From an uncultured Acidobacteriota bacterium (lineage in GTDB: Bacteria > Acidobacteriota > Thermoanaerobaculia > UBA5066 > Gp7-AA6), in assembly GCA_963764715.1 (NCBI GenBank), contig CAVXTP010000021.1:320001-384000 (forward strand): a DNA stretch of 64,000 nucleotides. The letters run 5' to 3'. A program made the position numbers and the translations under genes. How positions within the stretch are numbered: the first letter of the stretch is position 1; every line of letters begins with the position of its first letter. The notes under the pieces are model-generated. The model saw only the letters and a list, made by a program, of their open reading frames with translations, did not search any database and was not told the DNA's origin. Below are positions 1 through 64,000 of this stretch, piece by piece.

Positions 1-744
1 CGTCACATCGGTGACGCGGGTGAGCACCAGCCCCGATCCGTTGGTCGGCAGACCGGCGGTCCCGGCGGCGTTGGTGCCGATGAGATTGCCCTGGATCGTG
101 AGGCCGTGGATGCCCCCGACGGGGTCGAAGGCGACCTTGTCGTGGCCGCCCGAGATCAGGTTGCGTGCGGCCGGCGCGGTGCCGCCGATCCGGACGTTGG
201 TCGGCGCTGCGCCGGTGACCTGGGCCGTCGGCGTCGAGTTGGACGGCGCCGAGGTCCCGGTCGCATCGGTTCCGAGGAAGCAGCCTTCGATCGCGGCGTT
301 GCTGGCGGAATTCTGGAGCCGGATGCCGGCGAACTGGCACCCGTGGACGTTCAGGCCGCGGATCGTCGTGTCCGCCGCGGCGACATCGAGACAGATCGAC
401 CCGGCGGGAAGGCCGGACCCGTCGATCTCGATCTGCAGGACGGTGTTCAGCCCCTGCGTCACGTCGTGGGTGTTGGCCGAGGAGCCCGACTGCGTGTAGC
501 CGTCGATCGTGACCGGCGACGTGATCGCCGGCAGGGCGGTCGCGGGCGCGATCGCGTGGACTCCCGAGCCGACGATGTTGAAGGCGATCGTGTCGGCTCC
601 GGCGGCGCCGTTGGCGTCGAGGATGGCCTGGCGGAGGGACCCGACTCCCGCGTCGGCATTCGTCGTGACGGTAAACGTCCCGGCGGCGAGCCTGGCGGTG
701 GCGCAGAGCAGAGCGGCGCCAGCGATTCCGAGGCGTCGGATCAT
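1..744 (-). CDS. Beta-helix/IPT/SLH surface protein paralog 1 (5' part; runs off left edge)
   Basis: Manual translation from ATG 744 (RBS AGGAGG): [46 protein letters not shown]..., same N-terminus as the other paralogs; not in the ORF track because it is truncated. Confidence 0.88.
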   Translation of the reverse strand, partial: MIRRLGIAGAALLCATARLAAGTFTVTTNADAGVGSLRQAILDANGAAGADTIAFNIVGSGVHAIAPATALPAITSPVTIDGYTQSGSSANTHDVTQGLNTVLQIEIDGSGLPAGSICLDVAAADTTIRGLNVHGCQFAGIRLQNSASNAAIEGCFLGTDATGTSAPSNSTPTAQVTGAAPTNVRIGGTAPAARNLISGGHDKVAFDPVGGIHGLTIQGNLIGTNAAGTAGLPTNGSGLVLTRVTDVT

Positions 745-823
745 GTTGGCCTCCTGATGGGAGCGGAAGATTTCACGTTCCGGAGTGAAAATCGACGGAA
801 ATCGGCTCGCCGGGGCCGGGGGA

Positions 824-3223
824 CTACTGCAGGTTGAACGTCTTGACGATGAACACGGCCATCTGCCCGCGCGTGTTCGGGCTCGACGGGCAGTAGTTGC
901 CGCCCCCGCACCCGCCGGTGATGCTTTCGGCGGCGAGCTGCTCGATCCAGTCGGCGAACTGCGAGGGGCACGGGACGTCGGGGAAGTCACCCGAGCACGC
1001 CGGCGGCACGTAGGTCGAGCCGTGCTCGGCCTTGAGCAGAAAGACGGCCATCTGGTCGCGGCGGACCGGATTGCCCGGACAGTAGTTGCCGCCGCCGCAG
1101 CCTCCCGTGATCCCCTCGGCCGCGAGCGCCTCGATCCAGTTGGCGAAAGTCGACGGGCAGGCCACGTCGCCGAAGACTCCCGCGCAGGGAGGCGGGACGT
1201 AGCAGAGGCCGTAACGGCCCTTGAGAAGGAAGACGGCCATTTGCTGGCGCAGCGTGGCCGCGTTAACGCCGTAGAGGCCTCCGCCGACTCCCGCCGTGAT
1301 GCCGTTGGCGACGAGGGCCGTGACGTACAGGTGGAACTGCTGCGCGTCGGGCACGTCGAGAAAGTCCGAAACCCATCCGTTGATGAGGATCCCGGCGCTG
1401 CCGTTCGTGTTCACGACGGTGACGTGGTTGACCGTCCCCGGCGCAAGGGCGGGGACCGTGGCCGAAAGCTGTGTGAAGGATGCGACGTTCACGTTGGACG
1501 CCGCGGCCGGCCCGATCGAGACCGTCGCGCCGTCGAGGAAGTCCGTCCCATGGACGGCGACCGACGCGCCGCCCGCCGGGTCCCCGGAGGTTGGCGCGAC
1601 CGAGAAGACCATCCGCTGCGAGAACTCGGAGGTGTTGCCGGCCGGATCGGTCGCCGTCGCGGTCACCGATTCTCCGAAGCCGGGGGTGACGACGTCGAAG
1701 GTCGCGATGCCGGAGACGCTGCTCGTCGTCGTCGGCGCAACGCCGATCAGGTAGGAGCCCTGGAGGAAATCGTGCGGGCGCGCCGCACACGCCGGATTGC
1801 CGAAGAACTCGAGCTGGTAGGCCGTCGAGGGCGCCCCGTGCAGGATGCCCTGGACCTCCGTGCCGCCCGGGACCTGGACCGCGGACGTGATGATCGGAAA
1901 ATTCTGCAGGTTGTTCGGGCCGGAGTCGCCGTCGAGGGGGTCGTTCGCGTCGACGCCGATCGACCCGAGGTCGATGCCGAGGCCCGCGTTCTCCCAGATG
2001 TTGTTCCCGCTGATCGTGTTGCCGTTGCCGTTCTGGATCCGGATCCCGCCGAAGATGCCGGTCCCGTTGTTCTTGATCGTGTTGCCTTCGCCCGGGCTCA
2101 ACCCGCCGATGACGGAGTTGTTTCCGTTGACCACGATTCCCCATTGCGCATTGCCGAGCGGCCCGGCCTGTCCGTCGCTCGCTCCGATCGAGTTGCCGAG
2201 GACGCTCGTGCCATTGGCCGAGATCTCGATGCCGTTGGCGCCGCTCGCGGCGACGACGTTGCCGACACCCGGCTCACCGATCGTATTGGCCGGGCCCTCC
2301 ACGCTGATCCCGTAGGTGCCGTTGCCGAGAGGGAGCGTCCCGGTCACGTCGGTCCCGATGAAATTTCCCTCGACCGTCGAAGACGTCACCGGGTCCCGCA
2401 GTCGCACGCCCCCGGCGAAGTTGCCCGAGATCACGTTGCGCTCGCCCGCGGTCGGACCGCCGATGCGGACGTCCGTGCCCGTGAGCGCCAGCTCGACCCC
2501 GCCCTGGGTGCCGGGGAGCGCGACCGTGCCGGTCGCATCGGTGCCGATCAGGTTGCCCGCGATGACGTGTCCGCTTCCGGCGCTCGCGTAGATGCCGTCG
2601 ATGACGTTGGCCGAGATGACGTTGCGAGCGGCCGGCGCGGAGCCTCCGACCGTCACGTCCGCGCCTCCGGAGATGAAAACTCCGGCCTCGCCGTTGCCGG
2701 CCGCAGCGCCGCCGGCGGGGTCCGTCCCGATGAAGCAACCCTCGACCTTCACGTCCGAGGCGCCGTCGATGCGAATTCCGGAATGCCCCCGATTGATCGC
2801 GAGCCCTCGCACGACGGTCCCGGTCGCCGTGGAGGCGATCTTGAGCACGGCCGCGTCGGTCGCCGCCCCGGTGTTCGTGCCGTCGATCTCGACGAGGATG
2901 ACCGCGCTGGTCCCCTGGTCCGGGGGGTTGGTGTTCGCGCTCGAGCCCGGCTGCGTGTAACCGTCGATCGTCACCGCGTCCGTGATCGTCGGCAGAGCGC
3001 TCGCCGGAGCGATCGTGTGGACGCCGCCTCCCGGAATGCCGAAGGCGATGGTGTCATCGCCGGCATTGCCATTGGCGTCGAGGATCGCCTGGCGCAGCGA
3101 GCCGACGCCGGAGTCGGCCGTGGTCGTGACCGTGAAAACCGCGGCGAGGGCGGGGATCGACGCGAGCGCAACCAGGACGGGGACGAGAATCGCGGACAGC
3201 CGACGGCCTCGTACGGAGAACAT
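824..3223 (-). CDS. Secreted parallel beta-helix + Ig/IPT + 3x SLH-like protein (paralog 2)
   Basis: Signal peptide, [10 protein letters not shown] cap, GNxIGTD/RNVISGN coil repeats, [18 protein letters not shown]-like domain, [13 protein letters not shown]...RRDQMAVFL repeats; RBS AAGGAG. Confidence 0.9.
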   Translation of the reverse strand: MFSVRGRRLSAILVPVLVALASIPALAAVFTVTTTADSGVGSLRQAILDANGNAGDDTIAFGIPGGGVHTIAPASALPTITDAVTIDGYTQPGSSANTNPPDQGTSAVILVEIDGTNTGAATDAAVLKIASTATGTVVRGLAINRGHSGIRIDGASDVKVEGCFIGTDPAGGAAAGNGEAGVFISGGADVTVGGSAPAARNVISANVIDGIYASAGSGHVIAGNLIGTDATGTVALPGTQGGVELALTGTDVRIGGPTAGERNVISGNFAGGVRLRDPVTSSTVEGNFIGTDVTGTLPLGNGTYGISVEGPANTIGEPGVGNVVAASGANGIEISANGTSVLGNSIGASDGQAGPLGNAQWGIVVNGNNSVIGGLSPGEGNTIKNNGTGIFGGIRIQNGNGNTISGNNIWENAGLGIDLGSIGVDANDPLDGDSGPNNLQNFPIITSAVQVPGGTEVQGILHGAPSTAYQLEFFGNPACAARPHDFLQGSYLIGVAPTTTSSVSGIATFDVVTPGFGESVTATATDPAGNTSEFSQRMVFSVAPTSGDPAGGASVAVHGTDFLDGATVSIGPAAASNVNVASFTQLSATVPALAPGTVNHVTVVNTNGSAGILINGWVSDFLDVPDAQQFHLYVTALVANGITAGVGGGLYGVNAATLRQQMAVFLLKGRYGLCYVPPPCAGVFGDVACPSTFANWIEALAAEGITGGCGGGNYCPGNPVRRDQMAVFLLKAEHGSTYVPPACSGDFPDVPCPSQFADWIEQLAAESITGGCGGGNYCPSSPNTRGQMAVFIVKTFNLQ

Positions 3224-3299: not shown

Positions 3300-5726
3300 T
3301 TATTGAAGGGTGAAGGTCTTCACGATGAACACGGCCATCTGCCCGCGCGTATTCGGGTTCAGCGGGCAGTAGTTGCCCCCGCCACAACCGCCGGTGACGT
3401 TCTCGGCCGCGAGTCGCTCGATCCAGTTGGCGAAGGTGGACGGGCACGGAACGTCGGCGAACGTTCCGGCGCAGGCGGGCGGGACGTAAGTCGAGCCGTG
3501 CTCCGTCTTCAGCAGGAAGACGGCCATCTGGTCGCGGCGCACGGGGCTGAGCGGGCAGTAGTTCGTTCCGCCGCAGCCGCCGGTGATGCCCAGCGTCGCG
3601 AGGGCCTCGATCCAGGGGGCGAAGGTTCCGGGACAGGCGACGTCCGTGAAGAATCCCGGCGTGCAGGCCGGCGGGACGTAGCAGATCCCGAATTTCGCCT
3701 TGAGCAGGAAGACCGCCATCTGCTGGCGCAGGGTGCTGTTCGCGACGCCGTAGTTGCCCCCGCCCACGCCCGCCGTGATCCCGTTGGAAACGAGGGTCGT
3801 GACGAAGCCGTGAAACTGGTTGTTCAGCGGCACGTCGTTGAAGTCCGCCACCCAGCCCTTCGACAGCGTCCCCGTGGTCGCGTCGGGGTTGGTCAGGGTG
3901 ACGTCGCCGAGCGAGCCCGCAGGCAGGGCCGGCGTCCTCACCTCGACCTGGGTCGAGTTCTGCCAGAAGAAGTCGGTTGTCGGTAGTCCTCCGATCGTGA
4001 CCGTCGCTGTGTTGGAGAAGTTGGTGCCCCGGACCACGACGAGGGTGCCTCCCGCGGGGGGGCCGGAGACCGGGCTGATCGAAAAGACGAGCCGGGGCGA
4101 GAGCTCCGACGTGTTCCCGCTCGGGTCGGTCGCCGTGACCGTCACTCGCTGACCCGCCTCGATCGTGTAGGCCAGGCTGACGTCGAAGGCGGCGTGGCCC
4201 GCGCCATCGGTCGAAAGGTCGGATGAGCCGATGTAGACGAGGCCCTCCTCGAAATCATGCGGACGGCCGGCGCACGCGGGATTGGCGAAGAAGTCGAGCG
4301 CGTACGTCGTGGAAGGGGTCGTATCGAGGGTCCCGATGACTTCCGTGCCCGAGGGCGCGAGCGGCGCGGCCGAGGTGATGATGGGATAGTTCTGGCGCCC
4401 GTTGGGGCCCGTGTCGGCGTCCAGCGCGTCGTTGGGGGTGACGCCGTCGGCTGCCAGATCGATGCCGATCGTGCCGTTGGCGTAGATCGAGTTGCCCCGG
4501 ATGGCATCGTTGGCGATGTTGCCGAGCAGGACGATGCCGCCGACGGTGCTGTGCGCGACGATGTTGGCTTCGCCGGGCGCCGTGCCGCCGATGGTCGCGT
4601 TGCTGCCGAAGATCGCGATCCCGCGATTGTGATTGCCCAGCGCGAAGCTGCCGGTCGGGTCGGTCCCGATGAGGTTGCCCTGGACGACGACCCCCGTCAC
4701 GCCCCCCGCGATCGACAGGCCGTCGAGGGCGTTCGACGAGATGACGTTGCCCGCGCCGGGAGCCGGGCCCCCGATCGTGCTGCCGTTGGCCTCGACCAGG
4801 ATTCCATAGTTGAGGTTGGGAAGCGGCCCCGTCCCGGTGACGTCGGTGCCGATGAAGTTCCCCCGGACGACGAGGCCCGAGCCGTTGTTGAGCCGGATGC
4901 CGTAGAGAAGGTTGCCCGAGATGACGTTGCGGCTGGCCGCGGTCGTGCCCCCGATCGTGATGTTGGAGCTCGAGGCATTGTCGATCTCGACGCCGACCTG
5001 CTCACCCCCGAGAGCGTTGCCGCCCGATGCGTCCGTGCCGATCAGGTTGCCCTGGATCAGGTGCCCGCTGCCGCCGAGGCCGGCCGAGCCGAAGTCGATC
5101 CCGGCCGTTCCGTTGGCTGAGATCAGGTTGCGGGCGGCGGGAGTCGTGCCGCCCACGGTGACGTTGGAGGGCCCGTTGTTGCCGAGGATCCCGAAATTGG
5201 TGTTCCCGTGGGCGACCGTTCCGGTCGGATCGGTGCCGATGAAGTTGCCGGCGATGACCATTCCGGCGACCCCGGAGAGACGGATCCCCGCGTAATGGCC
5301 GCGATTGATGACGAGGCCCTGGACGGCGCTCCCGCCGCTGCCAGGCGCGAAGTAGAGGACGGCGGCGTCGCTTCCGAGCCCGGTGTTCGTCCCGTCGATC
5401 TCGATCTGGAGGACGGCATTGGTCGCCTGGTCCGGGGCGTTCGTGTTGGCGCTCGCTCCCGACTGCGTGTAGCCGTCGATCGTGACGGGCCCCGTGATCA
5501 ATGGAAGCGCGCTCGCCGGCGCGATGGTGTGCAGACCCGATCCGACGATGGCGAACCCGATCGTGTCGGCGCCGACGGAGGCGTTGGCGTCGAGGATCGC
5601 CTGGCGCAGCGACCCGGCGCCGCTGTCGGCGGTGCTCGTGACCGTGAAGGTGTTGGCGAACGTCGACGAGGCCCCGAACAGGCCGATGGCCGCGAGGAGG
5701 GGAAGACCCCGGAGCGACGAGCGCAT
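3300..5726 (-). CDS. Beta-helix/IPT/SLH surface protein (paralog 3)
   Basis: 808 aa ORF with the same architecture. Confidence 0.9.
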   Translation of the reverse strand: MRSSLRGLPLLAAIGLFGASSTFANTFTVTSTADSGAGSLRQAILDANASVGADTIGFAIVGSGLHTIAPASALPLITGPVTIDGYTQSGASANTNAPDQATNAVLQIEIDGTNTGLGSDAAVLYFAPGSGGSAVQGLVINRGHYAGIRLSGVAGMVIAGNFIGTDPTGTVAHGNTNFGILGNNGPSNVTVGGTTPAARNLISANGTAGIDFGSAGLGGSGHLIQGNLIGTDASGGNALGGEQVGVEIDNASSSNITIGGTTAASRNVISGNLLYGIRLNNGSGLVVRGNFIGTDVTGTGPLPNLNYGILVEANGSTIGGPAPGAGNVISSNALDGLSIAGGVTGVVVQGNLIGTDPTGSFALGNHNRGIAIFGSNATIGGTAPGEANIVAHSTVGGIVLLGNIANDAIRGNSIYANGTIGIDLAADGVTPNDALDADTGPNGRQNYPIITSAAPLAPSGTEVIGTLDTTPSTTYALDFFANPACAGRPHDFEEGLVYIGSSDLSTDGAGHAAFDVSLAYTIEAGQRVTVTATDPSGNTSELSPRLVFSISPVSGPPAGGTLVVVRGTNFSNTATVTIGGLPTTDFFWQNSTQVEVRTPALPAGSLGDVTLTNPDATTGTLSKGWVADFNDVPLNNQFHGFVTTLVSNGITAGVGGGNYGVANSTLRQQMAVFLLKAKFGICYVPPACTPGFFTDVACPGTFAPWIEALATLGITGGCGGTNYCPLSPVRRDQMAVFLLKTEHGSTYVPPACAGTFADVPCPSTFANWIERLAAENVTGGCGGGNYCPLNPNTRGQMAVFIVKTFTLQ

Positions 5727-10463: not shown

Positions 10464-10473
10464 GAGTCCTCCT

Positions 10474-10586
10474 ATTGCAGGTTGACCCGACCACCGAAGG
10501 CAGACCCCCGGCAGTAGGGAACGCCGTGCGAAGCACGGCGGTAACTCGAATCTGACTTGACCGCGATTCTGCTCATTGCAGGTTGA
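10474..10586. repeat. GTAG-tagged REP-like hairpin element, copy 1, between 12-bp direct repeats of the paralog 3' end
   Basis: Core CCGAAGGCAGACCCCCGGCAGTAGGGAACGCCGTGCGAAGCACGGCGGTAACT; hairpin 10522-10540; ATTGCAGGTTGA at 10474-10485 and 10575-10586. Confidence 0.85.
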
Positions 10587-15302: not shown

Positions 15303-15650
15303 CTAGCGCGGAGGAGGTGCGCGCGAGGAGCGCGATTCGGAGAAAGCCGGGTCGAGGAGCGCGTCGTCGCCGTCGGGATGAACGCCGCCGGCGTCTTGCG
15401 GCGGGGGCGTCGTCGGTCCCTGGCCGATCCGGAGGGTCGCATGGGCCGGCCCGTGGAAAGCGGATGCGGCGCCCGACTCGAGACGGTCGGCGTCGTCGTC
15501 GGGGAGCGGGTCGGCCGTTGCTCCGCGCTCGACGGGAAGCAGAGCGAGGGAGACGAGAAGAAGGAGAACGAGGGCAGGAAGCGCCCGGCGCCAGCGGGCG
15601 CTTGCCGATGTCCCTCGACGGGAACGCCGGTTCCTCGGTCGGCAGGTCAC
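15303..15650 (-). CDS. Small protein with N-terminal hydrophobic segment and C-terminal RAPP motif (candidate arrest peptide)
   Basis: GTG overlaps the stop of paralog 8 (GTGA); 115 aa: basic N-region, ALPALVLLLLVSLALLPV, acidic/Pro-rich linker, ends SRSSRAPPPR*. Confidence 0.6.
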   Translation of the reverse strand: MTCRPRNRRSRRGTSASARWRRALPALVLLLLVSLALLPVERGATADPLPDDDADRLESGAASAFHGPAHATLRIGQGPTTPPPQDAGGVHPDGDDALLDPAFSESRSSRAPPPR

Positions 15651-40623: not shown

Positions 40624-40647
40624 GGCGCCCGCCGGTCTCCTTATGCC

Positions 40648-43252: not shown

Positions 43253-43292
43253 GTGGACCTCCTCGTTCATGACTGGTCGGATCGCCGAACCC

Positions 43293-45683: not shown

Positions 45684-45775
45684 GCCTTTGCCTCCGCTGA
45701 TGTGGCGGGGATTCTATCCAAATCGTTCGCGCCAGCTCGGGGCCTCCGGAGCGGCATCGAAGGGCCGCCCGGTCC

Positions 45776-48136: not shown

Positions 48137-48156
48137 GCGATGCCTCCTTTGCCGGG

Positions 48157-50574: not shown

Positions 50575-50582
50575 TGGGCGTT

Positions 50583-50624
50583 CTCCTGTCCCGAATCTCG
50601 ACAAATGGCGGCGGCCGGGGTCAA
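50583..50624 (-). promoter_or_regulatory. Conserved promoter-like motif TTGAC-N14-TTTGTCGAG
   Basis: Recurs upstream of paralogs 21, 22 and 23, a short distance from a CAGGAG RBS. Confidence 0.55.
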
Positions 50625-50627
50625 GCG

Positions 50628-50651
50628 AAAACGGGCCGTGAGGCCCGTTTT
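50628..50651. terminator. Bidirectional intrinsic terminator
   Basis: AAAACGGGCC-GTGA-GGCCCGTTTT perfect inverted repeat downstream of paralog 20. Confidence 0.75.
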
Positions 50652-50724
50652 GAAACAGTGGCGGCCGCGGGGGGGAGGCGACCCGCCCCCCGGGGCGCGC
50701 CTCCCGGGCGGTCCGGAAGAGGGT

Positions 50725-53127: not shown

Positions 53128-53135
53128 GGTCCCTC

Positions 53136-55586: not shown

Positions 55587-55594
55587 TGAGCTTT

Positions 55595-55636
55595 CTCCTG
55601 TGGCGTATCTCGACAAAGTGCGGCCTCCGGGGTCAA
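55595..55636 (-). promoter_or_regulatory. Conserved promoter-like motif, copy 2
   Basis: TTGAC-N14-TTTGTCGAGAT...CAGGAG. Confidence 0.55.
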
Positions 55637-55793
55637 GGAAAAAGAGGTTGGGGACCGCGGCTCCCGGCCGTGCGGCGGACCCGATCCGCCGTTCGGAAGT
55701 CCCGGGAAGGGGCCTCCGGCGCCTCCCGATGGCACGGGCCGGAGACTACGGGCGGGCGCAAGCCCGCCCGAGGGAGTCGAGGAAAGGCTCCCT

Positions 55794-58208
55794 CTACGGG
55801 AGGTCGAACGCGTTGTACAGGAAGGCCGCCATCTGGCCGCGGGTCACGTTGTTGGCCGGGCAGTAGTTGCCGCCGCCGCAGCCGCCGGTGACCCCTTCGG
55901 CCGCGAGCTGCTCGATCCAGGGACTGAAGGGCGATGCGCAACTGACGTCGAGGAAGTCGCCGTCGCAGGGCGGCGGCACGTACGACGCCCCGTGCAGGGC
56001 CTTGAGGATGAAGACCGCCATCTGGTCCCGCCGAACGGGGTTGCCCGGGCAGTAGTTGCCGCCGCCGCAACCGCCCGTGATGCCCTCCTCGGCGAGCTGC
56101 TCGATCCACGGGGCGAAGCCGGAGCCGCACGGAACGTCGCCGAAGACACCCGCGCACGGGGGCGGCGTGTAGCAGATCCCGTACTTGGCCTTCAGGAGGA
56201 AGACCGCCATCTGCTGCCGGAGCGTCGGCTGGCTGATCCCGTAGTTGCCGCCGCCCACGCCGGCCGTGATGCCGTTGGCGACGAGGCTCGTGATCTGCGT
56301 GTAGAACTGGCTGCCGGGGATGTCGTTGAAATTCGAGATCCAGGCGTTCGGAAGCGTCCCCGAAGCCCCGCCGCCGGGATTGGCGACCGTGAGGGCGTTG
56401 ATGCTTCCGGCCGGCAGCGCCGGGATGTTGGCTGTGATCGTCGTCGAATTGTCGACGGTCACTCCGGTCGCGGGGACGCCCCCGACCGTGACCGTCGCGC
56501 CCGGCTCGAACGCGAGGCCGCGGATCTGCGCGCCGGTGACGCCGGTCGGCGAGCCGGACACGGGGTCGAGCGAGAGCACGAACCGCGGCGAAAGCTCGGA
56601 GGTCGCGCCGGACGGGCTCGTGGCCGTGGCCGTGATCGGCGATCCGTTCACGACGACGACCGCGAGAACCTCGTTGAAGGCCGCGTTGCCGGACCCGTCC
56701 GTCGTGACTTCGATCGAGCCGATGTAGGTCTTCGCCTCGTCCTGCTCCTGCGGGCGGCCGTTGCACGCGGGGTTGGAATAGAGGTCGACATCGAAGGTGG
56801 TCGACGGGGTGCTCTGGAGCGTTCCGGCGATCGTGGTATTCGCGCCTCCGTAGGTCACCGAGGAGATCAGCGGATAGTTCTGGTAGCCGTTCGGGCCGCC
56901 ATCCGCGTCTCCGGCATCGTTGATGTTGACGCCCAGCTCGAAGAGATTGCCGCCGGTGAGGTCGATGGCGAGGCCGCTGTTGGCCTGGATCCCGGCGTTG
57001 TCGAAGATCGAGTTCCCGCGCACGGAGGCGTTGACGCCGTGGACCACGACCCCCGCCCAGCCGCGGTTGTACGCGATGATGTTGCCCTCGCCGGGGCCGA
57101 TGCCGCCGATCGTGTTGTTCGAGCCGCCGACCTTGATGCCCCAGTAGCCGTTGGCGAGGCGGACGGTGCCCGTGGCGTCGGTTCCGACCTGGTTGCCCTG
57201 GACGACGTTGCCGTCGCCACTGAGCTCGATTCCCGAGTCGATCGCCCCGCCGACGCGGTTGCCCGCCCCGGCGGCGGAGCCGCCGATCGTGTTGTTGTTG
57301 GAGCCGCTGTTGACGGTGATGCCGACGGAAGTCACGGCGATGACGATCGTGCCCGTGACGTCGAGCCCGACGAAGTTGCCCACGATCTGGTTGCCCGTGC
57401 CGTTGACCAAGATCGGGCCGGCGAACACGTTGCGGGCGCCGGCCGTCGTGCCGCCCACGACGTTGTTGATGCCACCGCCGGTGCCCATCGCCAGCGGACC
57501 GTCCGGGATGAGGAGATGAAGGCCCGTGACGTCCGTGCCGACCAGGTTGCCGGCGACGAGCGAATTCGATACGGGCTCCGTGATCCCCAGCCCGAAAGCG
57601 ATGTGATCGGCGAACAGGCTGTCGCCGGACACCAGGTTGCGGGCGGCCGGTGTCGTGCCGCCGATCCGGGCGTTGGTCTGGGATCGCGGATTGATCCCGC
57701 CGCCGTACGGCGCGAGGGCCACCGCTCCCGCCGCGTCGGTGCCGATGAAGCAGCCCTCGAGGACGAAGTCCGTGTGCGCGCCGGTGGTCGCGACCGCCCT
57801 GTCGGTGCACCGGTTGACGACGAGCCCGCGGATCGTGACGTCGTCGGCAGCGGCGAACAGGCACGGCGCGGCTCCGGCGTTGGTCCCGTCGATCTCGATG
57901 CGGAGGACGGTGTTGAGGCCCTGGCTGGCCGGGTTCGTGTTGGCCGATGCCCCCGACTGGGTGTAGCCGTCGATCGTCACCGGGCCCGTGATCGTGGGCA
58001 GCGCGGACGCCGGCGCGATCGTGTGCACGCCGCTGCCGACGACCGCGAAGGCGATCGTGTCGGCTCCGGGATTGGCGTTGGCGTCCAGGATCGCCTGGCG
58101 AAGGGTCCCGGCTCCCGAGTCGGCGGTCGAGGTCACGGTGTACGTTGTCGCGAACCCGAAGGCGGCGACCCCGGACAGGATGGCGGCGAGGCCGATTCGC
58201 TGGAGCAT
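55794..58208 (-). CDS. Beta-helix/IPT/SLH surface protein (paralog 22)
   Basis: ATG 58208 (MLQRIGLAA), RBS AGGAGG. Confidence 0.88.
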   Translation of the reverse strand: MLQRIGLAAILSGVAAFGFATTYTVTSTADSGAGTLRQAILDANANPGADTIAFAVVGSGVHTIAPASALPTITGPVTIDGYTQSGASANTNPASQGLNTVLRIEIDGTNAGAAPCLFAAADDVTIRGLVVNRCTDRAVATTGAHTDFVLEGCFIGTDAAGAVALAPYGGGINPRSQTNARIGGTTPAARNLVSGDSLFADHIAFGLGITEPVSNSLVAGNLVGTDVTGLHLLIPDGPLAMGTGGGINNVVGGTTAGARNVFAGPILVNGTGNQIVGNFVGLDVTGTIVIAVTSVGITVNSGSNNNTIGGSAAGAGNRVGGAIDSGIELSGDGNVVQGNQVGTDATGTVRLANGYWGIKVGGSNNTIGGIGPGEGNIIAYNRGWAGVVVHGVNASVRGNSIFDNAGIQANSGLAIDLTGGNLFELGVNINDAGDADGGPNGYQNYPLISSVTYGGANTTIAGTLQSTPSTTFDVDLYSNPACNGRPQEQDEAKTYIGSIEVTTDGSGNAAFNEVLAVVVVNGSPITATATSPSGATSELSPRFVLSLDPVSGSPTGVTGAQIRGLAFEPGATVTVGGVPATGVTVDNSTTITANIPALPAGSINALTVANPGGGASGTLPNAWISNFNDIPGSQFYTQITSLVANGITAGVGGGNYGISQPTLRQQMAVFLLKAKYGICYTPPPCAGVFGDVPCGSGFAPWIEQLAEEGITGGCGGGNYCPGNPVRRDQMAVFILKALHGASYVPPPCDGDFLDVSCASPFSPWIEQLAAEGVTGGCGGGNYCPANNVTRGQMAAFLYNAFDLP

Positions 58209-58218
58209 GTAGGACTCC

Positions 58219-58258
58219 TCCTGACCCTGACTCGACAAAACGCCGGGCCGGGGGCCAG
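58219..58258 (-). promoter_or_regulatory. Conserved promoter-like motif, copy 3
   Basis: CTGGC-N14-TTTGTCGAGT...CAGGAG; the upstream box is degenerate. Confidence 0.45.
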
Positions 58259-58286
58259 GAGGAAATCCGCGATCGCCGCGGGGTCG

Positions 58287-60698
58287 CTACGGGAGCGAGA
58301 ATGCCTTGACCAAAAACGCCGCCATCTGCCCCCGGGCGACGCTCGTCGTGGGGCAGTAGTTGGCGCCGCCGCACCCGCCCGTGATCTCGTCGGCCGCGAG
58401 CTTTTCGATCCAGTCGGCGAAGGACGACGGGCAGGCCACGTCGTCGAACACCCCGGTGCACGGAGGGGGCGTGAACGTCGAGCCGTACTTGCCCTTCAGC
58501 AGGAACACGGCCATCTGGTCGCGCCGCACGGGGGAGGTCGGGCAGTAGTTGCCTCCTCCGCAACCGCCGGTGATCCCTTCCGCGGCGAACTGCTCGATCC
58601 ACGGCGCGAAGATCGAGTTGCAGGGCACGTCGGGAAAGTCCCCCGAGCAGGGCGGCGGCACGTAGCAGATTCCGTGCTTGGCCTTGAGGACGAAGACCGC
58701 CATCTGCTGGCGCGTGACGCTGACGGCGGGGCAGTAGTTGCCGCCGCTGCACCCCGCCGTGACCCCGGACGCCACGAGTTTGCCGATGAGGCTGTCGAAC
58801 AGGCTGTTCTTCACCACGTCGTTGAAGCGCGAGACGTAGCCGTTGCGAAGCGTGCCCGAGAGGCCGCCGGGATTCGCGACGACGATGTCGTAGACCCCGC
58901 CGGGAGAGAGCGCCGGGCCGGTGAAATCGAGCTTGTACTCGGTGTCGAAGCTGACCGGAACGGGATTCCCGCCGATCGTCATGGTGGCCGCGGGGTCGAA
59001 CAGGTGCCCGCGGACGGACTGGAGGCCGGTGTCCCCCGGGCCGCCGAGGCCGGGAACCGAACGGAAGACGATTTCCTGCCAGAGCTCGGAAGTGTTGCCT
59101 TCGGGCCCGGTCGCCGTCGCGGTGACGGGCGCACCCGCCGCGATCGGCGTCGGGAGAAGGACGTTGAAGGCGACGTTGCCCGAGCCGTCGGTCGTGACCT
59201 GCGCCGTGCCGATGTAGGTCTCGGCCTGGAGGAGAGCCCGCGGCCGGCTGCGGCACGACGGGTTGGCGTAGAAGTCGAGATCGAACACCGTCGAGGCGAG
59301 GCTGTTGAGCGTCCCGATCACGCGCGTCCCGCCGGCCTCCGGGACGGCCGACGTGATGAGCGGGTAGTTCTGGAAGTCGTTCCCGAACTGGATGGTGACG
59401 CTGTCGGCGTCGCCGAGGTCGTTGGGGTTCTGACCGCTGGGCGTGCTGCCGTTGGCCAGATCGATGGCCAGCCCCACACCGTTGGCGCCGACGCCGCCGA
59501 TCCCGTTGTTGAAGATTCGATTCCCCCGGATGGGATTCTCCTGCGCGAAGTCCGTTACGAGGATGCCGACCCACCCGTTGTAGGCGATGACATTGGGCTG
59601 TCCCGGGCCGATGCCGCCAACGGTCTGGGCGTGTGTGCTCAGGAAGATGCCCATGATGCGGTTGCCGAAGTTCTTCGTGGCGGTGGTGTCGGTCCCGATG
59701 AAGTTGCCGTAGAGCGGGGTCAGGAAGCTGTCCAGGAAAATGCCGTAGTCGAAGCCGCCGATCACGTTGCCTTCGCCCGGTCCGGTGCCGCCGACCGTGC
59801 TGCCGCCGGGACCAGGCACCTTGATGCCGCTCGTGCCGCTGGAGATGACTCCCGCCTGGGCCGCATCGACGCCGATGAAGTTGCCCTGCACGGTCGCCAT
59901 CGCCGTGCCGATCCCGACGCCGACGTCCATGCCGGCGACGACGTTGGCCGCGTTCGGGTCGGCCCCCCCGACCGTGATGGGGGAGGAACCCGAGAGGCTG
60001 ATCCCGATGCCGGCGCCGGAGGTCCCGGGCATGGCTCGCGCTCCCGTGATGTCCGTGCCGATGAGATTGCCCTGGATGACACCGCCGTAGCTCATGGCCA
60101 CGCCGATGGACCCTCCATTCGAGATCAGATTGCGCGCGGCGGGGGTCAACCCGCCGATGCGTGCGCCGGGGCTGTCGTTGCTGACGCCATGGCCGCCGAC
60201 GTACCCCTGGAGCCCGTCCGGGCTCGCCCCGACGAAGCAGCCTTCGACGACGAGGTTGGAGTGCAGGAACGAATCGCTCCCGCCGATCTGATCCTGGGAA
60301 AAACGGTTGACCGCAAGGCCCCGGAACGTCACGCCGGGGATGCGGGCCTCGAGGCCGTTCCCGGTCGTTGCCGTGCCGGCGATCTCGATCATCAGGACCG
60401 TGTTCAGCCCGAGGCCCACGGCATTCGTGTTGGGCGACGCGCCCGCCTGCGTGTAGCCGTCGACCGTCACGGCGTCGGTGATGGGCGGCAGAGGCGTCGC
60501 CGGCGCGATCGTGTGCACTCCCGATCCAACGATGGCGAAAGCGATCGTGTCCGCGCCGATAGCGGCGTTGGCGTCGAGGATCGCCTGGCGGAGAGACCCC
60601 GGTCCCGAGTCGGCCGTCGAAGTCACCGTGTACGTGGTCGCGGAGACGACCGCCGCGGCCGCGAAACAGGCGACGGCCATACCGAGTCGGTTGAGCAT
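58287..60698 (-). CDS. Beta-helix/IPT/SLH surface protein (paralog 23, head of array B)
   Basis: ATG 60698 (MLNRLGMAV), RBS CAGGAGG. Confidence 0.88.
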   Translation of the reverse strand: MLNRLGMAVACFAAAAVVSATTYTVTSTADSGPGSLRQAILDANAAIGADTIAFAIVGSGVHTIAPATPLPPITDAVTVDGYTQAGASPNTNAVGLGLNTVLMIEIAGTATTGNGLEARIPGVTFRGLAVNRFSQDQIGGSDSFLHSNLVVEGCFVGASPDGLQGYVGGHGVSNDSPGARIGGLTPAARNLISNGGSIGVAMSYGGVIQGNLIGTDITGARAMPGTSGAGIGISLSGSSPITVGGADPNAANVVAGMDVGVGIGTAMATVQGNFIGVDAAQAGVISSGTSGIKVPGPGGSTVGGTGPGEGNVIGGFDYGIFLDSFLTPLYGNFIGTDTTATKNFGNRIMGIFLSTHAQTVGGIGPGQPNVIAYNGWVGILVTDFAQENPIRGNRIFNNGIGGVGANGVGLAIDLANGSTPSGQNPNDLGDADSVTIQFGNDFQNYPLITSAVPEAGGTRVIGTLNSLASTVFDLDFYANPSCRSRPRALLQAETYIGTAQVTTDGSGNVAFNVLLPTPIAAGAPVTATATGPEGNTSELWQEIVFRSVPGLGGPGDTGLQSVRGHLFDPAATMTIGGNPVPVSFDTEYKLDFTGPALSPGGVYDIVVANPGGLSGTLRNGYVSRFNDVVKNSLFDSLIGKLVASGVTAGCSGGNYCPAVSVTRQQMAVFVLKAKHGICYVPPPCSGDFPDVPCNSIFAPWIEQFAAEGITGGCGGGNYCPTSPVRRDQMAVFLLKGKYGSTFTPPPCTGVFDDVACPSSFADWIEKLAADEITGGCGGANYCPTTSVARGQMAAFLVKAFSLP

Positions 60699-60705
60699 GG
60701 GGATC

Positions 60706-60741
60706 CTCCTGTCAAAGGACTCGACAAAAAGCAGCGTCAAG
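60706..60741 (-). promoter_or_regulatory. Conserved promoter-like motif, copy 4
   Basis: TTGACGCTGCTTTTTGTCGAGTCCTTTGACAGGAG; same TTTGTCGAG box, shorter spacing to TTGAC. Confidence 0.45.
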
Positions 60742-60847
60742 GGACACGGAACGGCTCGGGTCAATGGGAATTCGGGCTCGGCGTCCTCGGCGGCGGCTCC
60801 CGCCGGCCGGGGGGAGCCGGGGCACCTCCGATACAATTCGGGCATTC

Positions 60848-61441
60848 ATGACGGAGAATCCACCGGCGCCCAGGCCTGAAGAGGTCACGGGTCTCCTGCG
60901 CGCCGCCGAGGCGGGCGACCGGGAGGCCCTGGACCGCGTGTTCTCCGTGCTTTACGGGGAGTTGCGTGCGATCGCCCACCGCCAGCTCCAGGGGGCTCCC
61001 GCCGAGCAGACCCTGTCGACGACCGCCCTCGTCCACGAGGCCTATCTCAAGCTTTCGCGCGGCGCGGGCTGGACGGCGAAGGACCGCCAGCACTTCTTCT
61101 CGCTCGCCGCGCGGGCGATGCGGATGATCCTCGTTGACCAGGCCCGCTCGCGCACCCGGCAGCGCCGCGGCTCCGGGAAACGGCCCCTCGATCTCGAGAA
61201 CGTCGAGATACCCGTCGAGGAGCGCGCCGCCGAGATCGTTGCGCTCGACGAGGCGCTCGTCCGGCTCGGAGAAGTCGACGGCGAGCTCGCGCAGATCGTC
61301 GAGTGGCGGTTCTTTGCCGGGCTCTCCGTGGAGGAGATCGCGGAGATGTCGGGCCGGTCGGAGCGGACGGTCAAGCGGCACTGGCAGGCGGCGCGGGCGT
61401 TTCTCTACCAGGAGCTCGCGGCGCCGGGATCGGAGGCGTGA
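60848..61441 (+). CDS. ECF sigma factor, TIGR02999/ECF43-like (second copy)
   Basis: ATG 60848; TLSTTALVHEAYLKL, ARAMRMILVDQAR, VEWRFFAGLS. Confidence 0.92.
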   Translation: MTENPPAPRPEEVTGLLRAAEAGDREALDRVFSVLYGELRAIAHRQLQGAPAEQTLSTTALVHEAYLKLSRGAGWTAKDRQHFFSLAARAMRMILVDQARSRTRQRRGSGKRPLDLENVEIPVEERAAEIVALDEALVRLGEVDGELAQIVEWRFFAGLSVEEIAEMSGRSERTVKRHWQAARAFLYQELAAPGSEA

Positions 61442-64000
61442 CCACCGGGGGGCGCTGGACCGAGGTCCGCGTGCTCTTCGAAGAGCTCGTCGAGGTTCCG
61501 GCCGAGGAACGCGAGCGCCGGATCGCGGCGCTGCCCGACCCGGACCTGGCCTCGCGTGTCGCACGCCTGCTCGCCGCGGACTCCGAGGCGGGGCGGTTCC
61601 TCGAGACGCCCGCCGTGGCCGTCGCGGGCGGCCTCTTCGACGGCCTCGCCGCCACCGAGAGCGAGGCGCCGCCTCCGGAGCGGATCGGCCCGTACCGGGT
61701 GCTCCGTCGGCTCGGCCGGGGAGGAATGGGGGAGGTGCTCCTCGCCGAGCGCGCGGACGGGCTCTTCGAGCAGAAGGTCGCGATCAAGCTGCTCCGGCGG
61801 GGGATGGCTTCCGACGAGGTCCTCGCGCGCTTCTCGCGCGAGCGCCGGATCCTCGCCCGTCTCGAGCACCCGCACATCGCGCGCCTCCTCGACGGCGGAG
61901 CGACGGAGGACGGGCGGCCGTACTTCGTCATGGAGCTCGTCGAGGGCGAGCCCATCACCGACTACTGCCGCACCCGTGACCTGTCCGTCGAGGAGCGGCT
62001 GCGCCTGCTCGAGGACTGCTGCGACGCCCTGGCGGCGGCGCACCGCAACCTCGTCGTGCATCGGGACCTCAAGCCCTCGAACGTGCTGGTGACCCGCGAC
62101 GGCGAGGTCAAGCTCCTCGACTTCGGCATCGCGAAGCTGCTCGGCCCCGAGGACACGGGCGAGGCCGCGGCCGAGACGCGGACGGAGCTGCGGCTGCTGA
62201 CGCCGGCCTACGCCGCCCCCGAGCAGATCTTCGGGGAGCCCGTCACGACGGCGACGGACGTGTGGGCGCTCGGCGCCCTGGCGTACGAGCTCCTGACCGG
62301 CACGCTGCCGCAGAAGCGGGAGAGCCGGTCGCCCTCCTCGCTCGCCGCGTCTGCCGCCGACGACGTGACGGAGCGCCCCAGCCAGCGCGTCGCCCGCGAG
62401 CCGCTCGCCGCACTGCCGCTCTCCGCGCCGAGGGAGGGAGACCGGCGGCGTCTCGTCAAGCGGCTGCGCGGCGATCTCGACAACGTCGTCCTGGCGGCGC
62501 TTCGCCGGGCGCCCGAGCGCCGCTACGGCTCGGTGACCGCGTTCGCCGGCGACCTGCGCCGCCACCGGGAGGGGCAGCCGGTCAAGGCGCGGCCGGACAC
62601 CGTCGGATATCGCGTCGGCAAGTTCGTCCGGCGCAACCGCGTCGTCGTCGCGGCCGGCATCCTCGTCATCGCGTCCCTCGTGGCGGGGCTCGCGGTCGCG
62701 GCGTGGCAGGCCCGGCGCGCCGAGGCGCACGCGAAGACCGCGGCGGCCGCGGCGCGGCGGGCCGAGAGCGTCAAGGAATTCCTGATCGGCCTCTTCGAGG
62801 TCGCCGATCCGGAGCAGGCCTCGGGCGGGTCGGTCACGGCCAGCGAGCTTCTCGACCAGGCCGGCCGCCGGCTCGAGACGGAGCTCTCCTCCGAGCCCGA
62901 CATCCAGGCGGACCTCCTCGAGGCCGTCGCCCGCATCGACCGGGGCCTCGGCCGGCTCGACACCGCCGGGGACCTCGCGAAGCGCTCGCTCGAGATTCGC
63001 CAGCGCATCCTGCCCTCGGGCGCCGCGGCCATCGGCCGGAGCCTCGCCACGCTCGGCGCCGTCAGCATGTCGAAGGGCCAGCTCGACGAGGCCGAGAAGC
63101 AGATCACCGCGGCGCTCGCGGTCCTGGAGAAGACCGAGCCGCCCGACAGCCTCGCCACGGCGCGCGCGAAGAGCGACTTCGCCCAGGTGCGCTTCTGGAA
63201 AGGCGACGCCATTCCGGCGGAGAAGATCGAGCGCGGCGTCTACGAGACCTACCGGCGCGTGCTGGGCGACGACAACGCGCAGACGGCGATGCACCTGCGC
63301 AACCTCGGCGTGCTTCTCGACGAGCTCGACCGGCTCGACGAGGCCGAGAAGGCGTACCGCGACTCTCAGGCCGTGCTGGTGAAGCGGCTCGGTCCGGACC
63401 ACGTCAACCTCGGGTACAGCTACCTGAACCTCGCGGTCCTGCTCGGGGGGCGGCGCAACCAGTCGGCCGAGGCGGAAGCGCTCTACAAGCGCACGCTCGA
63501 GATCCGCCGCAAAGCGCTCGGCCCGAAGCATCCGACGGTCGGCCAGGCGCTCCAGCTCTCCGGCCTCTTCTACCTGAACCAGGGGCGGCTCGAGGAGTCC
63601 GAGGCTGCCTACGGCGAGGCGCTGGCGCTCTTCTCCGGGATCGACCCGAAGCACTTCGAGGTCGGCAAGTGCAAGAACGGGCTCGCGCTCATCGCCTCCC
63701 GCCGCGGCCGCTACGCCGAGGCCGAGGCCACCATGGCGGAGGTCGAGGCCCTGTTCCGGGAGGTCCTCGGCGAGAAGCATCCCTTCACCTGGCAGGTCCG
63801 CGGAAACCGCGCATCGCAGATCGGGCTGCAGGGCCGGCTCGACGAGGAGGAGTCGCTCGAGCGCGAGGTCGCGGCGAAGCTCGAGGAGCTCAACGGCAAG
63901 GACTCGGGCGAGGCTCTGGACGCGCGCGCGCGGCTGGCGGAAACGCGGCGCAAGCGCGGGCACCCCGACGAGGCCTTGCCCGTGCATCGCGAGGTCCTCG
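61438..64000 (+). CDS. Ser/Thr protein kinase with TM and TPR repeats (runs off right edge)
   Basis: GTGA overlap with the sigma gene; manual translation gives RIGPYRVLRRLGRGGMGEV, VAIK, HRDLKPSN, DFG, YAAPEQ, a TM segment, then TPR-like repeats; absent from the ORF track because no stop is reached. Confidence 0.9.
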   Translation, partial: MTTGGRWTEVRVLFEELVEVPAEERERRIAALPDPDLASRVARLLAADSEAGRFLETPAVAVAGGLFDGLAATESEAPPPERIGPYRVLRRLGRGGMGEVLLAERADGLFEQKVAIKLLRRGMASDEVLARFSRERRILARLEHPHIARLLDGGATEDGRPYFVMELVEGEPITDYCRTRDLSVEERLRLLEDCCDALAAAHRNLVVHRDLKPSNVLVTRDGEVKLLDFGIAKLLGPEDTGEAAAETRTELRLLTPAYAAPEQIFGEPVTTATDVWALGALAYELLTGTLPQKRESRSPSSLAASAADDVTERPSQRVAREPLAALPLSAPREGDRRRLVKRLRGDLDNVVLAALRRAPERRYGSVTAFAGDLRRHREGQPVKARPDTVGYRVGKFVRRNRVVVAAGILVIASLVAGLAVAAWQARRAEAHAKTAAAAARRAESVKEFLIGLFEVADPEQASGGSVTASELLDQAGRRLETELSSEPDIQADLLEAVARIDRGLGRLDTAGDLAKRSLEIRQRILPSGAAAIGRSLATLGAVSMSKGQLDEAEKQITAALAVLEKTEPPDSLATARAKSDFAQVRFWKGDAIPAEKIERGVYETYRRVLGDDNAQTAMHLRNLGVLLDELDRLDEAEKAYRDSQAVLVKRLGPDHVNLGYSYLNLAVLLGGRRNQSAEAEALYKRTLEIRRKALGPKHPTVGQALQLSGLFYLNQGRLEESEAAYGEALALFSGIDPKHFEVGKCKNGLALIASRRGRYAEAEATMAEVEALFREVLGEKHPFTWQVRGNRASQIGLQGRLDEEESLEREVAAKLEELNGKDSGEALDARARLAETRRKRGHPDEALPVHREVL

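Follow-up and report, generated by a model that had tools for sequence, protein, structure and literature searches.

Beta-helix–SLH paralogs in a 104.8-kb row interspersed with ECF43-like sigma–kinase operons and candidate subtype-specific promoters in an acidobacterial genome

The window analysed here, a stretch of 64,000 nucleotides (C21:320001-384000) in a 26-contig, 4.36-Mb acidobacterial genome (G000), encodes a tandem family of beta-helix proteins ending in surface-layer homology (SLH) repeats, together with two operons that each pair an extracytoplasmic function (ECF) sigma factor with a receptor Ser/Thr kinase. These operons run divergently from the adjoining paralogs and divide the family genes of the window into array A (13 genes) and array B (10 genes), in total 22 paralogs with a common N-terminal cap (N-cap) and one chimera, A10, in which GloVer repeats are joined to SLH. 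On balance we favour the view, built on sequence comparison, that the ECF43-like sigma–kinase operons in the row control adjacent array units via subtype-specific promoters. A wider version, which we hold more tentatively, is that three or more pairs with unlike tetratricopeptide repeat (TPR) sensors and private promoter variants each switch their own subset of a 45-member family. If this were true, different outside cues would dress the wall with different helices, and a phosphorylation-driven sigma network would be dedicated to one paralog family.

A longer row, comprising 35 paralogs, has the window as its central part. The genome carries 45 copies of the N-cap, and C21:316950-419722 accounts for 35 of them, every one in minus-strand orientation (22 within the window, 1 left of it and 12 beyond its right end); including the gene ends, the row covers 104.8 kb (C21:314961-419794). 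With 45 genes of ~2.3 kb, this one beta-helix family takes up ~2.4% of the 4.4-Mb genome. An earlier sequence-only reading had described 22 co-oriented paralogs plus one chimera in two arrays headed by divergent sigma–kinase operons at 29114 and 60848, and this description held: tblastn with the A12 N-cap as query found exactly 22 copies in the window, third-position GC placed all 23 array genes on the minus strand, A10 proved to be a GloVer–SLH fusion, and family models matched both sigma factors and both kinases. Its picture of a 'twice-repeated' module did not survive the larger row, nor did its proposal that each array has its own sensor, as array C, formed by the 12 right-hand paralogs, starts 10 bp past the kinase 2 stop codon and has at its head a 139-residue open reading frame (ORF) that matches no family, together with an RlmN-like radical-SAM gene.

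ECF43-like sigma factors and their receptor kinases

Sigma 1 (29114-29701, plus strand) and sigma 2 (60848-61441, plus strand, in an ORF that opens at 60764 and has its likely start at 60848) score 216 and 196 bits with TIGR02999 (Sig-70_X6), whose cut-off is 126, and match PF07638 at E = 2.5e-52 and E = 9.3e-48; we take these models to correspond to the ECF43 group. Family scans returned no anti-sigma domain among the sigma neighbours. ECF43 sigma factors lack the acidic DAED motif within region sigma-2.2 and carry STTA or QTTA instead, with a Thr that is phosphorylated by the cognate kinase, as far as the accessible text of two accounts goes (PMC8999054, PMC13147305). This Thr is kept in all five ECF43-like sigma factors of the genome, as QPTA in sigma 1 and in sigma 3 on contig C13, as STTA in sigma 2 and as TTT/VTT in the two sigma factors on contig C16, each time before [VL]HEAY. 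Because the family models match, the sigma-2.2 Thr is present, a kinase gene is adjacent and no anti-sigma domain was found, the ECF43-type assignment, already proposed in the sequence-only reading, is supported at the sequence level.

Kinase 1 (29698-32142, plus strand) and kinase 2 (61438-64000, plus strand; 923 residues, ending 209 nt past the window) share an N-terminal extension of ~80 residues, a Hanks-type Pkinase domain (83-330 and 86-297, respectively), a single hydrophobic span (371-389 and 402-420) and TPR families C-terminal to it, the ectodomain being TPR-like in kinase 1 and rich in TPR_12 in kinase 2. This architecture equals the one given for PknS, with an N-terminal extension, a Hanks domain, one transmembrane segment and periplasmic TPRs, in the available part of its description (PMC13147305). 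The cytoplasmic parts of the two kinases are 47% identical, whereas the ectodomains reach 28% over 207 residues (E = 0.003). Since the ectodomains align so weakly, it is plausible that the two kinases sense different inputs, and the distinct sensors envisaged earlier are in line with these values.

Inspection by eye revealed housekeeping-like -10 boxes 10-14 nt ahead of the sigma start codons. Sigma 1 has TCTAAT, and sigma 2 of the window has TACAAT ~10 nt before its ATG; sigma-2-type genes show TACAAT in four cases and also TAGAAT and TATGCT, and sigma-3-type genes TGTAAT, TCTAAT and TTAAAT. The position of these boxes near the start codon suggests constitutive, near-leaderless transcription of the sigma genes, which would fit a sigma factor synthesised in an inactive state and activated later through phosphorylation.

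The five ECF43-like sigma factors are the only ones in the genome, and each is followed by a kinase. The third pair, on C13, has a sigma 58-60% identical to sigma 1 and is divergent from another N-cap paralog. The two pairs on C16 (21-32 kb, L006/L007) have sigma factors 34-35% identical to sigma 1 and alternate with ORFs bearing a C-terminal SLH, one of them with a lipoprotein-type LAGC signal peptide. SLH-domain genes adjoin 5/5 pairs, and the five pairs are paralogous modules, not five independent events.

Candidate promoters upstream of array units

Two-part motifs of fixed spacing lie upstream of several paralogs, with a common TGnCC-like -35 half and -10 halves that vary with the sigma subtype (TCTCGCGG, GTCGAG and CGCGTG). 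The sigma-2-type motif, TGnCC-N15-TGTCGAG, has four matches in the 4.36-Mb genome, all on the minus strand and 22-25 nt ahead of the start codons of B06 (motif at 50597-50623), B08 (55609-55635), B09 (58231-58257) and B10 (60720-60746). In relatives (1.55 Mb of loci) all 7 matches precede N-cap genes, two of them being identical and maybe one place counted twice; several belong to the head gene by a sigma-2-type sigma, and those at L035:6622 and L047:2600 to internal genes. No match was found in 332 kb of sister-family loci. Other head genes carry the variants CATCGAG or TGCCGAG.

The sigma-1-type motif was detected upstream of A13 as TGACAC-N14-TCTCGCGG (28988-29015, minus strand). In its general form, TG[AG][CT][AC]C-N14-T[CT]TCGCGG, it has 5 genome matches, 3 of which precede signal-peptide ORFs with SLH (A13, a protein on C5 and a GloVer-like gene of array C), and 5 of 6 matches in relatives precede N-cap genes. 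The motif recurs before the orthologous head genes of L045, L049 and L042, and in an alignment of this intergenic region over five species only the closest pair could be aligned. TTTGTCGAG alone occurs 19 times in the genome and is unspecific by itself. For the sigma-3-type motif, TGA(G/T)CC-N17-CGCGTG, we counted 8 genome matches against a crude expectation of 3.3. Four of these lie 47-106 nt before N-cap starts (the C13 head gene, two genes on C7 and C21:410511 in array C), and a fifth precedes another secreted protein. In relatives, 3/7 matches precede an N-cap gene recognised by regular expression, and another three are placed 64-103 nt ahead of a paralog match. Positions within 400 nt upstream of an N-cap gene make up ~0.2% of the genome (42 regular-expression matches). 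The two C7 matches and C21:410511 had not been used to define the sigma-3-type motif; the same holds for the matches in L035 and L047 and at L042:10989 with regard to their motifs, and all of these precede paralogs.

Gaps of 7-22 nt separate A13-A12 (7 nt), A10-A09-A08, B02-B01, B04-B03, B06-B05 (20 nt) and B08-B07 (8 nt), which suggests that these sets are operons; A13 and A12 probably form one. With the motifs, this leads us to predict that 8 of the 23 array genes of the window are sigma-dependent (A13-A12, B10, B09, B08-B07 and B06-B05) and the rest are not. The signal-induced control of whole arrays that the sequence-only reading had pictured is thereby narrowed: motifs are found at the sigma-proximal units, and 20 of 134 paralog genes in this genome and five genus-mates carry a different box, RATAGRNT, instead.

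In the mechanism that we favour, the sigma–kinase operons would be transcribed from the housekeeping-type -10 boxes near their start codons. Each kinase would sense its own periplasmic cue via its distinct TPR ectodomain and would phosphorylate the conserved sigma-2.2 Thr of its sigma. The activated sigma would then read a subtype-specific two-part promoter before neighbouring array units, with the -10 half TCTCGCGG before A13-A12 as candidate target of sigma 1, TGTCGAG before B10, B09, B08-B07 and B06-B05 as candidate targets of sigma 2, and CGCGTG before four dispersed paralogs as candidate targets of the third pair (C13). The remaining row genes would probably be expressed from other promoters.

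Linkage and distribution in relatives

The sigma is present in 27/41 related genomes, G000 included. At 18 sigma loci in five genus-mates, a kinase gene follows in 18/18 cases, 13/18 have a divergent N-cap gene no more than 1.5 kb away, and an SLH match is found on the divergent strand in 16/18. At 17 sigma loci from seven genomes of two sister families, the kinase is next in 16/17. Among named metagenome-assembled genomes (MAGs), 16 of 77 paralog loci have a sigma within 8 kb, mostly divergent from the paralog, and none of 14 loci with the helix passenger only, from other classes or phyla, does. Outside this genus, the linkage is seen only in MAGs whose titles read Acidobacteriota or Thermoanaerobaculia, and such MAGs are also the closest named records that contain full-length relatives.

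Sigma number and array size covary across 11 genus-mates. Those with 5 sigma hits (G006, G017 and G021) have 28, 27 and 30 N-cap hits, and G018, with 1 sigma hit, has 14. No sigma hit was obtained in G019 (97% complete), G009 (96%), G016 (63%), G005 and G010, with 0, 0, 0, 1 and 3 N-cap hits, respectively; G023 is the exception, with 0 N-cap hits and a single sigma hit that lies at a contig end. Array and regulators thus seem to be gained or lost together; as genus-mates are not independent, this co-occurrence is co-inheritance and carries no statistical test. In genus-mates the distance between the sigma-1-type and the sigma-2-type gene ranges from 5.6 to 31 kb, and two of them hold four sigma–kinase pairs inside the array.

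The helix passenger alone (A12 1-470) was detected in 42/301 sampled genomes of the phylum, including G191, which is flagged unpublished, usually within much larger ORFs with other C-termini, and in other phyla giant secreted proteins contain homologous helices. SLH matches are found in 17/18 genus-mates, with 4 to 52 or more each, in 0/4 and 0/3 genomes of sister genera, and with 1 to 11 matches in the other sister-family genomes sampled. This SLH expansion in one uncultured genus of acidobacteria, which are abundant in soil, bears on how its envelope is built.

Architecture and fold of the paralogs

The paralogs consist, in order, of a signal peptide, the N-cap, a right-handed beta-helix, an Ig-like domain, an IPT/TIG domain and three SLH repeats, and each copy carries its own start codon, Shine–Dalgarno sequence and signal peptide. 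The Pfam scan, which the sequence-only reading had proposed, covered 20/23 array genes (A01, B09 and B10 were left out) and bore out its domain calls, with SLH in 20/20, TIG in 16/20 and Beta_helix/NosD in 9/20. The chimera A10 has no N-cap and no TIG; TIGR03803 (GloVer) matches it in 7 stretches (260 bits), followed by an SLH tail. Pairwise identities among the 21 aligned N-cap paralogs, with A10 excluded from the means, average 65% for the N-cap (43-86%), 45% for the central helix (35-63%; length 313-440 residues), 47% for TIG (30-94%) and 70% for SLH (51-96%). The N-cap and SLH are thus conserved, and TIG, at 47%, is not especially so; the conserved N-cap and IPT-SLH anchor described before therefore holds for its ends and not for TIG, and the central helix varies in every copy, as had been stated.

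An AlphaFold (AF2) model of A12, built on the 21-paralog alignment, had a mean predicted local distance difference test score (pLDDT) of 82.9. It comprises a capped right-handed beta-helix (~20-345), an Ig-like sandwich (~370-460), TIG (~470-550) and SLH as three helix-pair repeats with six helices (555-733). Between 100 and 345, short strands form a regular three-strand repeat with pLDDT mostly 85-93. An Asn/Asp-rich C-cap loop of the helix is invariant (N353, D354, D357, D359, N363 and N367). Foldseek matched the SLH part to Bacillus anthracis Sap (3pyw, 6bt4) and Paenibacillus alvei SpaA (6cwc) with template modelling (TM) scores of ~0.8 to the target, 6bt4 being the Sap SLH domain with a pyruvylated wall-polymer unit. 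From its homology to Sap and SpaA, the SLH module is expected to bind peptidoglycan-borne, pyruvylated wall polysaccharide. Two genes of the pyruvyl-transferase family PF04230 are present in the genome, weak evidence for a CsaB-type enzyme because the family also matches Escherichia coli and other control genomes.

The Arg of the TRAE-like motif is conserved in each SLH repeat, one Arg per repeat (R590, R653 and R719 in A12 numbering) being invariant in the 21 paralogs. The SLH repeats also hold loop cysteines (A12 605-712), of which seven are invariant and four others occur in 90% or more of the copies; this would fit an oxidising, extracytoplasmic location, and the cysteine-rich domain looks like a disulfide-stapled SLH variant. 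No beta-barrel translocator was found in the Pfam scans of the 20 array genes or in the A12 model, and the C-terminus is SLH. The genome encodes LpxC and Omp85/BamA, a diderm gene content, therefore a Sec-exported SLH protein may stay in the periplasm, and the array proteins may be periplasmic and bound to the wall unless they are exported further. The 'surface' location assumed in the sequence-only reading is accordingly not supported, a periplasmic one being possible.

For the A12 helix, Foldseek returned the mannuronan epimerases AlgE4 and AlgE6, an alginate epimerase/lyase, phage tailspikes and capsule depolymerases, at TM scores of ~0.5 or less, and the helix appears to resemble carbohydrate-active or carbohydrate-binding helices at the fold level only. 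The top match, 8wm1_A ("DHS dehydratase", E = 4e-15), is not interpretable, and a literature search on it gave no result. A sequence search of the PDB with the helix gave no enzyme relative, the sole match being a Bap Ig-like segment, and among NCBIfam models at E <= 0.01 the N-cap/helix passenger had no passenger model, the matches being to the SLH part and, weakly, of a CoaZ repeat to TIG.

Evolution of the family

For comparison we used G013, a species whose sigma 1 is 93% identical to that of the window. Within its syntenic 100 kb, counterparts with 71% identity or more exist for only 9 of 22 proteins (21 N-cap paralogs and A10), and their order is reshuffled. Nei–Gojobori ratios of nonsynonymous to synonymous substitution rates (dN/dS), pooled over seven ortholog pairs, were 0.31 for the signal peptide and N-cap, 0.32 for the central region, 0.28 for TIG and 0.19 for SLH, compared with ~0.09 for sigma 1 (dN 0.048, dS 0.509); none of the seven pairs gave gene-wide positive selection. 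At dN/dS ~0.3, the sequences indicate that the copies are functional and under purifying selection, looser than that on the regulator. Between A05 and A06 (8277-12987), nucleotide identity is 50-60% over the 5' two-thirds and 90-98% over the last ~750 nt, which encode TIG and SLH and in which third positions are 83% identical, a pattern that we read as gene conversion or recombination over the anchor. The family would evolve by tandem duplication, loss, reshuffling and anchor-end gene conversion, under purifying selection. In G013, the orthologs of kinase 2 and A12 (L047, L045) are broken across several frames, either as pseudogenes or by assembly indels.

Alternative explanations

Several observations weigh against control of the row by its sigma–kinase pairs. 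Array C has no pair of its own, and most array genes lack all three motifs. The RATAGRNT box lies within 70 nt of the start in 20/134 paralog genes, against 0.15 expected from the genome rate, its carriers including A02, A03, B02, B04 and the head of array C; 106 of the 134, tightly coupled genes among them, are unclassified by box. The G013 head gene by sigma 2 has an ATAGAAT-type box and no sigma-2 motif. The motifs were derived from the same upstream regions in which they are counted, and the regions upstream of B06-B10 are paralogous, so that shared ancestry may explain part of their conservation. The raw genome count of the sigma-2 motif is 4 against a crude composition estimate of 2.8, and with one mismatch the window holds 4 against 2.35 in shuffles, 21 of 100 shuffles reaching 4. 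The accessible literature yielded no ECF43 promoter consensus for comparison. The recurrent sigma–kinase linkage anticipated by the sequence-only reading is present in genus-mates (13/18 N-cap, 16/18 SLH) and in the other Acidobacteriota or Thermoanaerobaculia MAGs; beyond these, 0/17 sigma loci in the two sister families (seven genomes) have N-cap or TIG-SLH matches, and at ten sampled loci the neighbours are unrelated genes, among them those for NADH dehydrogenase, a receptor of TonB type, LuxR and an AAA protein. Finally, LpxC and Omp85/BamA leave outer-surface and periplasmic localisation both possible. Much of this would equally be met if the pairs were neighbours only, carried along by tandem duplication or inserted and regulating other genes, with the array genes constitutive or under other regulators: the motif-free genes and RATAGRNT boxes, the third array without a sigma, the unrelated sister-family neighbours and the post hoc motifs in paralogous regions all point that way. 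We nevertheless regard mere adjacency as unlikely, since the fixed-spacing two-part motifs are kept across species while the remaining intergenic DNA is unalignable, each sigma subtype has its own -10 half, matches that played no part in defining the motifs also precede paralogs, and sigma number follows array size in all genus-mates compared except G023. With the sigma-2 motif count near expectation, the motif argument therefore rests on position, fixed spacing, conservation across species and matches that played no part in the definition. A collapsed or expanded repeat in the assembly is a negligible prospect by comparison. Long paralog arrays are hard to assemble, and frames are broken in some relatives, but the central regions differ by 37-65% among copies with no near-identical pair, the frames of the window are all open, and the same layout recurs in genus-mates of 2-3 contigs, with equivalent arrays in many independent MAGs, so that misassembly, which the earlier reading had named as a risk, does not account for the arrays.

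As to what the proteins do, the data would suit adhesion and polymer processing as well as a structural layer. One possibility, to which we give limited credence, is a substrate-induced set of wall-bound enzymes, in which the helices are carbohydrate-active (lyase-, epimerase- or depolymerase-like) or glycan-binding and the TPR kinases sense polymers or their fragments, much as SigmaI/RsgI systems govern cellulosome genes in Clostridium thermocellum; it concerns the role of the proteins and can coexist with the regulatory model that we favour. The Foldseek matches of the helix to AlgE4/AlgE6, alginate epimerase/lyase, tailspikes and capsule depolymerases speak for it, as do the Pfam NosD/Beta_helix matches, the homologous helices in giant secreted proteins of other phyla and the many diverged helices under purifying selection (dN/dS 0.32), which fit many specificities. 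Its weaknesses are that no catalytic residues were identified, that the PDB sequence search gave the Bap Ig-like segment alone and no enzyme relative, that TM scores to the enzymes are ~0.5, and that the best-scoring match, 8wm1_A, has no clear meaning. A variant surface coat that shows one or a few paralogs at a time and exchanges them to evade phages or predators seems to us quite improbable. The large family with conserved ends and a variable middle, the anchor-end gene conversion between A05 and A06 and the rapid turnover (9/22 proteins with a G013 ortholog of at least 71%, in reshuffled order) would suit it, and Xanthomonas citri EcfK/PknS responds to amoeba predation according to the accessible text (PMC13147305). 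All coding ORFs of the window were assigned to families, however, and none is a recombinase, although no search was aimed at inverted repeats; each copy has its own start codon, Shine–Dalgarno sequence and signal peptide; several promoter classes replace a single expression site; dN/dS is 0.28-0.32 outside SLH without gene-wide positive selection; and exposure on the outer surface does not follow in a diderm with LpxC and BamA. With no invertase or silent cassettes seen and dN/dS ~0.3, the interchangeable repertoire for evasion suggested in the sequence-only reading is not supported.

Relation to known systems

The signalling part of the system belongs to the ECF43/Hanks-kinase kind and the anchor to the SLH kind. 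As far as the accessible accounts describe them, the sigma factors resemble EcfP and EcfK in having a Thr in place of the acidic sigma-2.2 motif, with STTA in both EcfP and sigma 2 and QPTA in sigma 1, and the kinase gene lies directly downstream of the sigma as in EcfK/PknS and EcfP/PknT. The kinases also share with PknS the ~80-residue N-terminal extension, Hanks domain, single transmembrane segment and periplasmic TPRs. In X. citri the adjacent target of EcfK/PknS is a type VI secretion system (T6SS) cluster, according to the part of the report available (PMC13147305), and here, too, the candidate targets adjoin the sigma–kinase genes. Unlike in the EcfK/PknS and EcfP/PknT systems as described there, these candidate targets are paralogs of a presumably wall-anchored beta-helix protein, not T6SS or polymyxin-resistance genes. 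A further difference from EcfK and EcfP is that one genome holds five pairs of three or more subtypes, each predicted from the sequence to have its own promoter-like motif. Kinase-activated ECF43 sigma factors have been tested in very few cases, and little is known of their promoters or of the regulons under them; in this lineage, several paralogous pairs come with neighbouring targets and a candidate cognate promoter each.

The anchor resembles those of Sap, EA1 and the BSL family of B. anthracis, the last being a set of SLH-anchored proteins, and of SpaA of P. alvei, with a triple SLH that superposes in the model and an invariant Arg per repeat. It differs from the Sap and SpaA families in its diderm host, in a C-terminal SLH with conserved cysteine pairs per repeat, and in the 45 largely tandem paralogs of one passenger type; this diderm lineage is not known for SLH anchoring on such a scale. 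The chlamydial Pmp proteins, autotransporters with a beta-barrel anchor, likewise form a large, partly tandem family of beta-helical passengers on a conserved anchor and are thought to diversify adhesion, whereas the anchor here is IPT/TIG plus SLH and no barrel was found by Pfam or in the A12 model. In the sap system of Campylobacter fetus, clustered paralogs with a conserved anchoring end are served by one promoter that is inverted before otherwise silent copies. The conserved anchor end, the variable remainder and the recombination at conserved ends are alike, but the copies here are co-oriented with their own translation signals, several promoter-like classes precede them, and no recombinase gene lies in the window. 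Paralogous SigmaI/RsgI systems of Clostridium thermocellum, with extracytoplasmic sensors, drive cellulosome genes that include partly SLH-anchored proteins and are similar to the scheme proposed here in that several sigma factors with sensors of their own control subsets of secreted, partly SLH-anchored proteins; there the sensors are anti-sigma factors with carbohydrate-binding modules paired with sigmaI-type factors, whereas here ECF43-like factors are paired with kinases. As in the 'choice-of-anchor' families of NCBIfam naming (TIGR03803 GloVer), in which the same passenger occurs on different C-terminal anchors, A10 sets GloVer on SLH, and the N-cap/helix passenger is found in other phyla with other C-termini; unlike those families, this passenger matches no NCBIfam passenger model at E <= 0.01. 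What is new is the combination and the scale, namely a 45-member family on an SLH anchor, interspersed sigma–kinase modules and subtype-specific candidate promoters. A literature search, with subscription journals and supplementary files outside its range, found no description of such acidobacterial SLH arrays or of their link to ECF sigma factors among the papers listed, those on Acidobacteria and SLH being judged by title and opening of the abstract.

Gene map and further features of the window

The window has a G+C content of 67-74%, and its ORF lists are crowded with shadow frames; strand and frame were called from third-position GC (GC3) and GC1 > GC2, and start codons were placed from the conserved signal peptide and N-cap motif. 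All array genes lie on the minus strand. In array A, A01 (1-744) is partial, with the N-terminal 248 residues recognised by signal peptide, N-cap and tblastn and its 3' part to the left of the window. GC3, the N-cap motif and Pfam define A02 (824-3223), A03 (3300-5726), A04 (5864-8059), A05 (8277-10463), A06 (10573-12987), A07 (13040-15244), A08 (15647-17935) and A09 (17947-20013). The chimera A10 (20036-21799), with a signal peptide, seven GloVer repeats and an SLH anchor, is followed by A11 (21865-24288), A12 (24509-26710) and the head paralog A13 (26718-28916), all three identified by Pfam. Array B comprises B01 (35235-37673) and B02 (37682-40081), both called from Pfam, B03 (40862-43270), B04 (43293-45683), B05 (45776-48136), B06 (48157-50574), B07 (50725-53127), B08 (53136-55586), B09 (55794-58208) and the head paralog B10 (58287-60698), and includes a GNAT acetyltransferase gene (40198-40626) recognised by family scan.

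Between kinase 1 and array B, a three-gene minus-strand operon (32161-35082), convergent with kinase 1, encodes a SoxA-like cytochrome c, a metallophosphoesterase with a twin-arginine (TAT) signal and a MauG/MbnH-like di-haem peroxidase. Among the divergent neighbours of sigma–kinase pairs in the sister families are a metallophosphoesterase gene at L023 and, at L027, a cytochrome-c-peroxidase-like gene. A search of sequencing runs listed no RNA run containing this DNA, and none of the runs exceeded 11% of the words sampled, a blank that weighs neither way. A promoter scan of 41001-61000 gave 0 sigma-70-type consensus promoters, and terminator-like sites numbered 14 there against 10.4 +/- 3.3 in shuffles. 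K-mer enrichment of the upstream regions yielded GC-rich words alone, with faulty trimming of upstream coding sequence. A GC-rich, two-hairpin element of ~60 nt lies on the minus strand in the gaps at ~10464-10572 (upstream of A05) and 24289-24508 (upstream of A11), and twice in the gap 40627-40861 upstream of the GNAT gene; Rfam had no family for it at the gathering threshold.

Outside the window, array C is broken by a B12-binding radical-SAM/DUF2344 gene (C21:405479-408103, equal to L003:1479-4103), next to which lies the second GloVer-like SLH gene with its upstream sigma-1-type motif. Elsewhere the genome holds ~70 Hanks-kinase domains, many in co-oriented tandem runs of ~7, 15 and 6 genes (C1:38-55 kb, C21:180-229 kb and C23:23-40 kb), which form a second kind of large paralog array.

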